From assembly GCF_046524175.1 (NCBI RefSeq), contig NZ_JBEFZF010000002.1:107304-171303 (forward strand): DNA of 64,000 nucleotides, read 5' to 3'. This DNA is from Spongiivirga sp. MCCC 1A20706. Its GTDB lineage: Bacteria > Bacteroidota > Bacteroidia > Flavobacteriales > Flavobacteriaceae. The position numbers and the translations under genes are program-made. A model generated the notes under the pieces. The model had not been told where the DNA came from. It saw nothing but the letters and a program-made list of their open reading frames with translations, and did no database searches. Shown piece after piece: positions 35,959-38,767 of the stretch; positions within the stretch are counted from its first letter, which is position 1; each line of letters begins with the position of its first letter.

Positions 35959-36204
35959 TTAGTTGGGATATTCAGATATACCATCATCCAATGAAGAAAC
36001 GATCAAACCCATTAGAGTAAATTTTTCGTTATCATCAGATAGTTCATTTTTATATAGTTTTAGAAATTCTTCTATCCTTTGAAAATCGGATACAACTATT
36101 TCCCAATCTTGTTCATTTTTATTCCAATACAAACCAAGCCGTTTAGATAGCTTTTCTTCCGAACTTATACTTGAGTGTCTTACATATTGTTTTGAATAGC
36201 TCAT
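35959..36204 (-). CDS. Small hypothetical protein (about 81 aa) translationally coupled to rtcB (TAAtATG junction)
   Basis: ATG at 36204 lies one nt after the rtcB stop (36208..36206). Acidic, helical. Confidence 0.45.
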   Translation of the reverse strand: MSYSKQYVRHSSISSEEKLSKRLGLYWNKNEQDWEIVVSDFQRIEEFLKLYKNELSDDNEKFTLMGLIVSSLDDGISEYPN

Positions 36205-36205
36205 A

Positions 36206-37594
36206 TTATTTCTTCTTTTTTCGCTTCTTCCAAGGCGCATTCTTTTCCCAATCACCCGCCATGATACAACCATAAGGCATGACTTCATCAATAACAGTTC
36301 CTAAGCCAAATTCTTCCATTTGGTTTCTTACGGCTTCAGCATTTTTATAAGCACTTGGCAATTCAGATACGTCAATTTCATTCGAGAAAAAACGGACATC
36401 TAATCCCGCAGTTTCTTCGGCAAAAACCTCATCATTGGTTTGATGGGCTTTGTTCTTTTTATGTTGTGTTCGACTCATATTTCGACCTGCACCATGTGGG
36501 GCAAATCCCAAATTCGTATTTGTGGTATCACCTTGAACGATTAACACTGGTTCTGCCATATTTAATGGAATCAAACGTGGACCTGTAATATCAGGCATAA
36601 ACTTCGCATCAAGTGGTGTTGCTCCTTTCGCATGGTAAAACAAATCACCGTCTTTAAACACAAAATTATGTTCATTCCAATATCGATCTTGTGCTTCTAC
36701 ATGCAATCGTTTTAGGCTTGCATTATGAATCACTTCATGGTTGGTCTTTGTCCATTGACGAATTATTTGAAGAGCCTCCCAATACTGTTGTCCCTCTTCC
36801 GTGTCAAAAGGAATCCATGCATTTTGTTTGAGCGTTTTAGGAGATAGGTCCTTTCGAAACCGCTCAGCAATCTGCATTCCCTTTTTGTACAATTTCGCAC
36901 CAGGCGCCCTAGAACCGTGATGCGTGATTAACATCGTATTTCCCGTCGCTTTTGATTTACCAACAAATAGAAAGTGATTCCCATCACCTTGTGTACCCAG
37001 ATGGGCACGTGCAGCCTTGATCAGGTTGTCATCATTTAGCAAAAAATTATGTTCAAATTGCTTCAATAATTCATCTGGAAAACGATATTGATCGTTTCGA
37101 TCTCTTCCTCCTGGGCCAAAATGGGTGCTTTCGTGAGCTGCATCTAAAACATCTTTAGGGTTCGCATTACCAAAATCAGTCAACATCACACTACAGCATA
37201 TATCGGCACTATGCATTCCTGGATGAATGGCATTTTTAGCTACCGCAACACCTCCTACTGGGATTGTACCTTTAGAACCAGTTGGACAAGCGTCTGGCAT
37301 TATCGCACCACCTACTAATGTTGGTGTTTTCATTAAAGTTTCCATTGATTGTATTACGGTGTTTACATTGGACTCTTCTAGCTCATTTTCCGCTTTTATG
37401 TTCACGGCAAATGGGATTTGTGTTTCATGCAATTCCATTTCAGGAGGCAGTTTAAACTGCTCTAAATAATCTAACATTGCCATCCCGTTTAATTGATGCG
37501 TATTGATATGCTCTATCGCGTCCTTAAACCATTTACCTGGCTTGTAACCAAGATCGATCAATGTTTGTCCGTTTATATGTATTGTATTTTTCAT
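36206..37594 (-). CDS. rtcB: RtcB-family RNA 3'-phosphate/5'-OH ligase
   Basis: DACPTGS...[38 protein letters not shown] correspond to the RtcB metal/GTP-binding motifs (GGGNHF, HSGSRGLG, AHGAGR). Confidence 0.85.
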
Positions 37595-37759
37595 TTTCTT
37601 GTTTTGATAAGCCCTGCCGACTCCAAGTTCGGCAGGACACTACTTGTAAAGTCTTATAAATTGACTTATTCATAATTCCAATACAAATGTTATTTTTATG
37701 TACGCAATAGTTTTGCGTAGTTGTACTTTTACATTGTGTTAGTAATATAGATATTAAAA

Positions 37760-38767
37760 ATGGCTCTTAACAAAAATGCACTCATCCGATATAAAACAAT
37801 CGACAAATGCCTTCAAAATATATACAGAAAATGGACTTTAGACGATTTGATCACTGCTTGTTCCGATGCGCTGTACGAATATGAAGGTAGAGAAGTAAAT
37901 GTGAGTAAGCGGACTGTTCAATTGGATATCCAGCTAATGCGAAGTGATAAATTAGGATACAATGCACCTATAGAGGTGTATGAGAAAAAATATTATCGCT
38001 ATGAACATCCAAATTATTCTATTACCGATATCCCAATTACGGAAAATGATATGAACGTCTTATCTGAAACCGTAGAAATGTTAAGACAATTTAAAGATTT
38101 TTCATTGTTTTCTGAATTAGGTGGCATTATACAACGTTTGGAAGATAAGGTATATACTGAGAAGACACATCAATCATCAATTATTCATTTAGATAAAAAT
38201 GAACGCTTGAAAGGACTAGAACATTTGGATGTGTTATACCAAGCTATTTTGAAAAAACTAGTTCTTAAAATATCTTATCAGTCATTTAAGGCACGACATC
38301 CATCCGTATTAATATTTCATCCTTTTATATTGAAGGAGTTTAACAATCGATGGTTTTTAGTGGGTAAAAATGCGGCTGACAAGCCTATTATTACCTTGGC
38401 TTTAGACCGAATAATTTCTATTGACTATGATCTTGAAATCCCATTTTTGAAAGAGGATTTTGATGGGGATTCTTACTATGAAAGCACCATTGGAGTAACA
38501 GTGCTTAATGAAGAACAACTGCAGGAAGTTGTTATTAAAGTCGATCATAAAAACGCACCATACGTGCTTACGAAACCATTCCATAGCTCACAAGAATTGG
38601 TAGAAAAAACCCCGGATAACGGAATTGTTTTTAAGATGAAAGTCCACCTTAATTTTGAATTAGAGCGATTGATACTTGGTTTTGGTGATAGCATTGAAGT
38701 TTTGCAACCAAGACAACTAAGAAAACGAATTCGGAAGAAATTGGAGCGAGCCTTGGAAAAATATTAA
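37760..38767 (+). CDS. WYL-domain transcriptional regulator (wHTH-WYL-WCX; BrxR/CapW/YafY-like)
   Basis: N-terminal wHTH (NALIRYKTIDKCL...RTVQLDIQLMR). Central ...HPFILKEFNNRWFLVGKN (WYL core). Conserved C-terminal extension. 335 aa. Confidence 0.75.
   Translation: MALNKNALIRYKTIDKCLQNIYRKWTLDDLITACSDALYEYEGREVNVSKRTVQLDIQLMRSDKLGYNAPIEVYEKKYYRYEHPNYSITDIPITENDMNVLSETVEMLRQFKDFSLFSELGGIIQRLEDKVYTEKTHQSSIIHLDKNERLKGLEHLDVLYQAILKKLVLKISYQSFKARHPSVLIFHPFILKEFNNRWFLVGKNAADKPIITLALDRIISIDYDLEIPFLKEDFDGDSYYESTIGVTVLNEEQLQEVVIKVDHKNAPYVLTKPFHSSQELVEKTPDNGIVFKMKVHLNFELERLILGFGDSIEVLQPRQLRKRIRKKLERALEKY

Follow-up and report, generated by a model that had tools for sequence, protein, structure and literature searches.

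In a stretch of 64,000 nt from Spongiivirga sp. MCCC 1A20706 (contig NZ_JBEFZF010000002.1, positions 107,304 to 171,303; hereafter the window, to which all coordinates refer unless a related locus is named) the gene of an RtcB-family RNA ligase and that of a WYL-WCX regulator are transcribed divergently from a 165-bp intergenic gap (37595-37759). We consider it likely that this locus forms the core of a regulon for RNA repair and translation stress under the WYL-WCX protein, a one-component regulator with a probable helix-turn-helix (HTH) domain. The WYL protein is proposed as the dedicated regulator of rtcB because the divergent pair is conserved, a shared palindrome stands at a fixed distance from the promoter, the palindrome and the WYL gene co-occur among related loci, and further RNA-repair genes are among the targets of the site. 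An earlier note made from the bare sequence had recognized the divergent neighbour across this gap as a WYL regulator, which the Pfam matches to both WYL and WCX confirm, and had suggested that the protein may replace RtcR as the regulator of rtcB, a proposal that comparative genomics now supports well.

The divergent WYL-rtcB pair and its palindrome

The features on which this reading is built are the following.

36206..37594, minus strand: rtcB, encoding a divergent RtcB-family 3'-phosphate RNA ligase of 462 aa with an additional N-terminal domain of about 75 aa
37760..38767, plus strand: WYL-WCX regulator of 335 aa, divergent from rtcB
37700..37720, minus strand: putative operator 1, the palindromic copy CTACGCAAAACTATTGCGTAC between rtcB and WYL
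37684..37691, minus strand: predicted -7 box of rtcB, AACATTTG, the TTTG of which begins 13 nt past the 19-nt operator core
37611..37638, minus strand: 10-bp stem with the 8-nt loop ACTTGGAG, in the 5' leader of rtcB
33530..33550, minus strand: putative operator 2, CTACGCACAATAATTGCGTAG, with the geometry of operator 1 and followed by GAGGTTTG at 33521..33514
33467..33438, minus strand: leader hairpin after operator 2, of the same type as that of the rtcB leader

The identity of the ligase, whose motifs had been called unambiguous in the earlier note, is borne out by a match to the Pfam RtcB family (PF01139, E=5e-37, 128.5 bits with a cut-off of 27) and by alignment to RtcB from P. horikoshii (PH1602), in which the catalytic motifs D-I-C-C, G-N-H-F, H-H-G-S-R, P-H-G-A-G-R and Y-K-N are intact. 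These motifs cover the metal-binding Asp/Cys/His residues, the GTP-binding N-H-F and the guanylylated histidine, all of them kept in the window RtcB, and we take their P. horikoshii counterparts to be D95/C98, N202-H203, H234, H404 and K480. All NCBIfam RtcB equivalog cut-offs are missed (86 bits vs 407 for PRK09588 and 61 vs 272 for TIGR03073), and identity to the PrfH-linked RtcB2 paralog of related genomes is 28%. Judged by these comparisons, the window RtcB belongs to a clade separate from both the E. coli-type enzyme and the PrfH-linked RtcB2. Residues 2-37 of its N-terminal extension resemble, below threshold, a segment of PF13735 (tRNA_NucTran2_2) in 19 of 21 orthologs (best E=5e-6). 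PF13735 is domain 2 of tRNA nucleotidyltransferases and the C-terminal domain of CCA-adding enzymes, and the resemblance hints at tRNA substrates or at tRNA-directed binding. Among the genomes of our species collection Spongiivirga citrea (locus L001) is nearest, with an RtcB 89% identical to that of the window.

The regulator shows a WCX domain (PF25583, E=1e-15, 58 bits) and a WYL domain (PF13280, E=8e-10, 39 bits), both over the cut-off, and a search against the PDB gave weak matches to WYL-domain proteins, a DeoR-family regulator and PafC. Within a set of 75 loci anchored on rtcB, with RtcB proteins 54-89% identical to that of the window, a WYL ortholog of 52-92% identity lies upstream of rtcB on the opposite strand in about 45, and the divergent gap measures 76-196 nt in 23 loci and the window. 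The reverse test started from WYL homologs on metagenome contigs, where 72 loci could be assessed: the divergent partner of WYL was an RtcB-family gene in 47, a 745-aa gene (cluster c18) in 10, RlaP in one and cluster c62 in one, and the remaining 13 carried none of the tested partner genes. The host is a member of the Flavobacteriaceae, and several isolate genomes from further genera of this family carry the pair as well. The WYL-rtcB neighbourhood is conserved from both search directions.

Alignment of the short rtcB-WYL gaps brought out a near-invariant palindrome, CTACGCAA-N5-TTGCGTAG. A scan for this site (21 bp with a 19-nt core, at most one mismatch allowed) found 75 copies in 1.39 Mb of related loci as compared with 0-1 in shuffled sequence. 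The 64-kb window holds exactly two copies where 0.13 are expected, a number reached in 0 of 100 shuffles. The distance to the promoter is fixed: in 71 of the 75 sites a TTTG starts 13-14 nt downstream of the 19-nt core (13 nt in 65 and 14 nt in six), forming nAnnTTTG, and TAnnTTTG is the known -7 promoter element of Bacteroidetes. Despite this fixed spacing, the bases between core and -7 box are not conserved. The operator spans about -40 to -20 of the predicted rtcB promoter, the place of the usual -33 element, and no TTG was found at the usual -33 distance in operator-linked promoters with a predicted -7 box. Read towards WYL, the centre of operator 1 is TAGTTTTG, T-n-n-T-TTTG, corresponding to the TAnnTTTG form, and it is plausibly the -7 box of the WYL promoter; as this putative box lies inside the operator, autoregulation is predicted.

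Downstream of the sites, which occur in many Bacteroidota, we found rtcB (49 cases), a tRNA-like RNA together with an SPFH/Band-7 gene (8), c18 (6) and RlaP (5). Site and WYL gene were both present in 42 loci, both missing in 22, and found singly in seven discordant ones (site only in four, WYL only in three), counts which come from loci that are not phylogenetically independent. Where the WYL gene lies apart from rtcB, as in L020 and L030, a copy of the site has stayed 40-50 nt ahead of WYL. Shown by the comparison are the gene content, the conserved pair, the site with its fixed spacing and its targets, and the joint occurrence of site and WYL.

About 45 nt past the -7 box both window operator transcripts would carry a hairpin with an ACnnGGRR loop, which is present at about 25 of the 75 sites overall. 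Two-sided changes occur in 9 of its 10 pairs among 19 sequences; as these were picked by a hairpin finder, their 100% pairing is circular, the compensatory changes are not. An Rfam scan of the rtcB-WYL gap gave no meaningful match (best E above 1); the leader hairpin is neither a described family nor Flavo-1, and a mimic of the sarcin-ricin loop was dropped because the ACnnGGRR loop is too variable. Flavo-1 RNA (RF01705) itself is found above threshold adjoining SPFH/Band-7 genes in L018 (6780-6858, plus strand) and L009 (9908-9980, minus strand), and none is found in the window.

RNA-repair partners and tRNA-like RNAs along the rtcB strand

The earlier note had stressed that the usual partners of rtcB are missing, and for the canonical ones this stands. 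Pfam scans of the flanking open reading frames (ORFs) and tblastn searches with RtcB2, PrfH and RlaP revealed no RtcA, RtcR, PrfH, RlaP or Ro60, and tblastn gave no match to RtcB2 in the window. The sole sigma-54 activator (45342..43927) is of the NtrC type with a REC domain and adjoins a histidine kinase, and the sigma-54 -24/-12 pattern TGGCAC-N5-TTGCW has no match in 37595-37759 even with up to three mismatches. A canonical RtcR-RtcA-RtcB operon is ruled out, as there is neither RtcA nor a CARF/sigma-54 RtcR in the scanned ORFs and no sigma-54 promoter, and so is an RtcB2-PrfH module for ribosome rescue and repair, as the window has no PrfH or RtcB2. What the note had overlooked is a series of other RNA-repair partners on the same strand, namely a 226-aa protein, a TPR protein, tRNA-like RNAs and an SPFH/Band-7 gene. 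Along the rtcB strand the order is small gene, two short conserved terminator units, 226-aa protein, TPR protein, tRNA-like gene, operator 2, hairpin, chained RNA and SPFH/Band-7.

35788..36204, minus strand: broken accessory gene (the small gene), 137 codons made up of 81 codons, an in-frame TAA at 35961..35959 and 56 more
34254..34934, minus strand: 226-aa basic protein without known domain, the homolog of which lies directly upstream of and overlapping RtcB2-PrfH elsewhere
33706..34242, minus strand: TPR protein of 178 aa, with homologs after PrfH in relatives
33562..33636, minus strand: atypical tRNA-like gene, called 'tRNA-Tyr(ATA)' by ARAGORN and scoring 27 bits with the Rfam tRNA model (cut-off 29)
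33148..33248, minus strand: core of a chained tRNA-like non-coding RNA with T-arm, closed acceptor hairpin and D-arm in a YrlA-like arrangement
31451..32605, minus strand: SPFH/Band-7 gene, 384 aa, Pfam Band_7 at 1e-34 and 120 bits, the first gene past operator 2 and the tRNA-like RNA

Operator 2 and the SPFH/Band-7 gene enclose a module that recurs: in eight loci the operator precedes the Band-7 gene by 780-1320 nt, and the module of SPFH/Band-7 and tRNA-like RNA is linked to the RNA ligase. The chained RNA scores 34.1 bits with the Rfam tRNA model at 33148-33211, above the cut-off of 29, and its layout upstream of Band-7 is repeated in L001, L004, L015, L075, L009 and L030. It is built from a T-arm, an acceptor stem whose closing loop often holds ACCA and a D-arm, to which some copies add an anticodon arm, and it ends in a conserved hairpin; it extends over about 32990-33270 (minus strand) in the window, 13650-13840 in L001, 14700-14990 in L004, 16030-16290 in L015 and 3540-3720 in L075. 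An assignment as YrlA (RF02553) was rejected, as the score is 33.1 bits (E=4e-5) with a cut-off of 69, only the tRNA-like part matches and no Ro60/TROVE was found. The atypical tRNA-like gene is probably not a decoding tRNA. It has homologs in L001 (13029-13102), L008 (8910-8982) and L009 (6751-6823) with compensatory changes in the anticodon stem and a GUAU(A/C) loop, and ARAGORN labels the copies Tyr(ATA) or Asp(ATC). Further odd anticodons occur in the arrays of relatives, namely Gly(ACC), Ser(AGA) and Ile(TAT).

Related genomes add two RlaP nucleotidyltransferases (PF10127), RtcB2-PrfH (RtcB2 and PrfH being present in L011, L078 and L079) and tRNA arrays. The arrays contain 5-18 tRNA genes on one strand and were found next to rtcB in 17 of the 40 related loci that were scanned for them, among them L015 (13338-14855), L019 (18641-20333), L004 (12349-13591), L045 (12617-13893), L005, L017, L023, L029, L068, L070, L009, L018 and L030. 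An array located downstream of rtcB usually has a copy of the operator after it, and the arrangement resembles the stress-induced L-arrays of cyanobacteria. No long tRNA array is present in the window, which has one atypical tRNA-like gene and tRNA-like fragments. A TPR accessory gene has been described for the RFH-RtcB systems (PMC6514570).

The small gene next to rtcB had been reported as a coupled, acidic ORF of 81 aa. The close spacing and the acidity are real, with the rtcB stop TAA and the ATG of the small gene 1 nt apart (AAATAATATGAGC) and a pI of 4.75, but the ORF (35959-36204) is only the front part of the 137-codon gene and not a complete gene. A database search returned 24 relatives, of which the other 23 have 110-163 aa, most of them 131-139, and all run well beyond the window stop; conserved residues of the family lie past position 81, and a Winogradskyella homolog aligns through the window TAA with 58% identity. 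An AlphaFold 2 model of a full-length homolog is a bundle of seven helices (pLDDT 92), of which, going by this model, the window stop removes the last three. The family has no match in Pfam, NCBIfam or PADLOC, and a Foldseek search of the full-length model against the PDB gave none either (best E=1.7). From the comparison with its homologs, the 81-aa ORF is an accessory gene truncated by a nonsense codon, unless the TAA is an assembly error. The comparative genomics that the earlier note had called for confirms a real family, but a sporadic one belonging to an island, and the window copy is broken. The same island is found in five other loci (L019, L076, L078, L079 and L081), where the small gene sits between a part with RtcB and RlaP and a part with the 226-aa protein, RtcB2, PrfH and TPR. 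In L079 the order is WYL, 236-aa ORF, RtcB, small gene, 226-aa homolog, RtcB2, PrfH and TPR, which is the order of the window apart from the 236-aa ORF and the RtcB2-PrfH pair, both lacking in the window. About 70 of the 75 rtcB loci are without the small gene, and S. citrea has neither it nor the 226-aa gene.

That the 81-aa product is nevertheless a functional, translationally coupled partner of RtcB would fit the stop-start spacing of 1 nt, the restriction of the family to this island in the five other loci and the annotation of an 81-aa product by NCBI, where a hypothetical protein of Spongiivirga sp. MCCC 1A20706 is identical to it in every residue. We regard it as improbable, given that none of the 23 other homologs is truncated alike and conserved residues follow position 81, that three of seven predicted helices would be deleted, and that the gene is missing from the sister species and from most rtcB loci.

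Several further observations concern the same strand and the same operator. The c18 family of 745 aa stands under the same operator in L012 (13044-15281), L014, L029, L032, L045, L072 and the metagenome loci L127-L157, replaces rtcB as the gene divergent from WYL in some genomes, and shows weak sub-threshold Pfam matches to a prokaryotic RING finger and NFACT_N. Two copies of one promoter-like motif, CATATTTGCACC, lie on the minus strand in the interval from rtcB to the 226-aa gene, at 35773 and 35344. The first copy precedes a 37-codon ORF (from 35754) and a terminator (35611..35586). An 18-codon ORF (MTKRQDRYFGTFHNQILW; 35131-35187, minus strand) is followed directly by an intrinsic terminator (35127 to about 35090). 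S. citrea has kept both units, with 96% identity in the 141-nt block of 18-codon ORF and terminator as compared with about 80% for the flanking genes. An ACUUCGG within this ORF is able to pair with the 5' arm of the terminator, and the block may serve the 226-aa and TPR genes downstream of it as a leader-peptide attenuator. When sought in other genera, ORF and terminator were found in S. citrea only.

Mode of control and alternative readings

In the mechanism that we propose, a dimer of the WYL protein would bind the palindrome and, at the -7 box of its own promoter, would limit its own synthesis, while operator 2 would drive the tRNA-like RNA and the SPFH/Band-7 gene. By analogy to other regulators, a product of RNA damage would bind to the WYL domain and turn the regulon on, the most plausible ligand candidates being cleaved tRNA or other RNA ends with a 2',3'-cyclic phosphate, and RtcB would then reseal breaks with 3'-phosphate and 5'-OH ends.

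Regarding the direction of control, activation in the manner of PafBC, whose binding site as a WYL activator adjoins the -10 element on its upstream side, has in our judgement somewhat less than an even chance and is still slightly preferred over repression with release as in BrxR, CapW or TrcR, because the -33 element is missing, the spacing is rigid and PafBC offers a parallel. A plain repressor that occludes the promoters until it is released by its ligand is a less probable but serious candidate. In its favour, site and core promoter overlap, a palindromic sequence points to a homodimer, BrxR and CapW are both repressors, and the analogous cyanobacterial regulon is under an autorepressor (PMC10272220). 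On the other side, a bare promoter without TTG at the -33 distance may be weak, and the 9-nt gap between site and -7 box hardly ever tolerates indels (71 of 75 sites), as would rather be expected for a factor that must contact RNA polymerase. The rtcB promoters of relatives without WYL were uninformative on this point.

Several observations weigh against a WYL-controlled regulon as proposed here, or against a firm choice of its mode. The N-terminus of the regulator has only a weak match to HTH_11 (E=0.045), under the cut-off; the transcription start positions are predicted from sequence; and an operator over the -33 region would fit occlusion, whereas activation would fit the rigid spacing and the lack of a TTG at -33. 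The co-occurrence of site and WYL is inflated by shared ancestry, as a Hymenobacter/Cytophagales group is without both as a block. In four loci the site is present although no WYL gene lies within 10 kb, and in three a WYL gene is present while the 300 nt next to rtcB hold no site; of these three, one has a site further upstream and another has that stretch masked. The four loci with the site and no nearby WYL gene, and the fact that binding of WYL to the palindrome is deduced from comparison, would also suit a reading in which WYL and rtcB are neighbours without any regulatory link, rtcB being constitutive and the palindrome serving another factor or being a structural repeat. This we find quite unlikely: the association is seen in both search directions, the site stays with the start of WYL when the genes are separated and is not found in the 22 loci without WYL, and the fixed promoter geometry rules out a random repeat.

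On the far side of the WYL gene, between it and the histidine kinase/NtrC pair, lies a region which the earlier note had taken for a putative defence module that WYL would tie to RNA repair.

38773-42581: strain-specific insertion of 3.8 kb with a 125-aa ORF, an 866-aa DUF4132 and DUF7737 protein and a 109-aa ORF

WYL and the 125-aa ORF have the same orientation and are 57 nt apart, stop to start, and nothing resembling a terminator lies in that interval, so that in this strain transcription from the WYL promoter could run on into the insertion. A role of WYL mainly in controlling the 125-aa ORF and the DUF4132 gene, coupling defence to RNA repair, could build on this, and we nevertheless hold it to be very unlikely. 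S. citrea lacks 38773-42581 and has the histidine kinase gene directly after WYL. The genes of the insertion are not found in the other 74 loci, save one weak match to the 125-aa ORF, with DUF4132 homologs in 0 of 74; they have no PADLOC match, and the operator scan of the window revealed no separate copy belonging to them. The proposed tie to a defence module is thus not upheld. A 460-aa protein with a match to TackOD1 ('thaumarchaeal output domain 1'), encoded at 19261-20643 (minus strand) in a glycosyltransferase/UDP-glucose dehydrogenase cluster, is unrelated to the present findings.

Relation to known RNA-repair systems

As in RtcR-RtcBA of E. coli and Salmonella, RtcB would be placed under a dedicated ligand-sensing regulator encoded divergently or adjacent to it, ligand sensing in the window being proposed by analogy. 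The window also shares a tRNA-like non-coding RNA with the rsr-yrlBA-rtcBA operon of Salmonella, in which the tRNA-like non-coding RNA YrlA lies. In contrast to RtcR-RtcBA, the window has no RtcA, CARF/sigma-54 RtcR, sigma-54 promoter or Ro60; its regulator is of the WYL-WCX type and its RtcB belongs to another clade with an N-terminal extension. RtcR senses tRNA fragments, and RtcR-RtcBA is induced by damaged tRNA (PMC7790460). By analogy of function the TrcR regulon is the closer match to the window. TrcR from Anabaena PCC 7120 represses rtcB, a tRNA array and a slipin gene (PMC10272220); it is autoregulated, its site overlaps core promoters and it responds to translational stress (PMC10272220, PMC8421152). 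Common to both are rtcB together with an SPFH/slipin gene and a site over core promoters, and tRNA arrays (5-18 genes) are found in relatives of the window. However, TrcR is a small RHH repressor acting on direct repeats, whereas the window has a WYL protein and a palindrome, with the array reduced to tRNA-like remnants.

The regulator itself resembles the HTH-WYL-WCX regulators PafBC, DriD, BrxR and CapW in its WYL and WCX layout, its weak similarity to solved members and the palindrome by its own gene, and as in PafBC promoters the site lies just upstream of the -10/-7 element. These regulators control DNA-damage or phage-defence genes and sense single-stranded DNA where this is known; the subfamily of the window is tied to RNA-repair genes instead. 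With the RtcB-SPFH/Band-7 and RFH(PrfH)-RtcB systems the locus shares a tRNA-like RNA before SPFH/Band-7 as well as TPR and basic accessory proteins, while RlaP and RtcB2-PrfH of those systems occur in close relatives and not in the window. Burroughs and Aravind reportedly catalogued both RtcB/SPFH-Band-7/tRNA-like and RFH-RtcB systems in 2016. RFH-RtcB systems have been described (PMC6514570), and passages in two later papers of the same group name WYL regulators as sensors in RNA-repair contexts, crediting the 2016 work of Burroughs and Aravind (PMC9503650, PMC7824862). Our literature search found no experimental study of a WYL-controlled rtcB. The locus belongs to an RNA-repair system that has been described computationally, to which the operator, the promoter geometry and the regulon are new detail.

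To our knowledge, RtcR (a CARF and sigma-54 activator) and TrcR (RHH) are the only experimentally studied regulators of bacterial RtcB repair, and both respond to damage of the translation machinery. In its most far-reaching form, which as a whole we put forward tentatively and hold to be rather unlikely, our reading would be that WYL directly senses cleaved tRNA or rRNA ends and, bound at about -30 in place of the -33 element, activates a Bacteroidota-wide anti-ribotoxin regulon (RtcB, RlaP nucleotidyltransferases, SPFH scaffolds together with decoy RNAs of chained tRNA-like modules, and spare tRNA arrays that can be induced), a third independent solution beside RtcR and TrcR. The locus gives a third class of regulator, WYL, a testable form with a 21-bp site, predicted promoters and a small regulon, predicted to consist of rtcB, RlaP, the tRNA-like RNA with SPFH, and the 745-aa protein. 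It could reveal to which signals WYL domains respond where RNA and not DNA is to be guarded, and whether the neighbouring tRNA arrays are an inducible back-up set.

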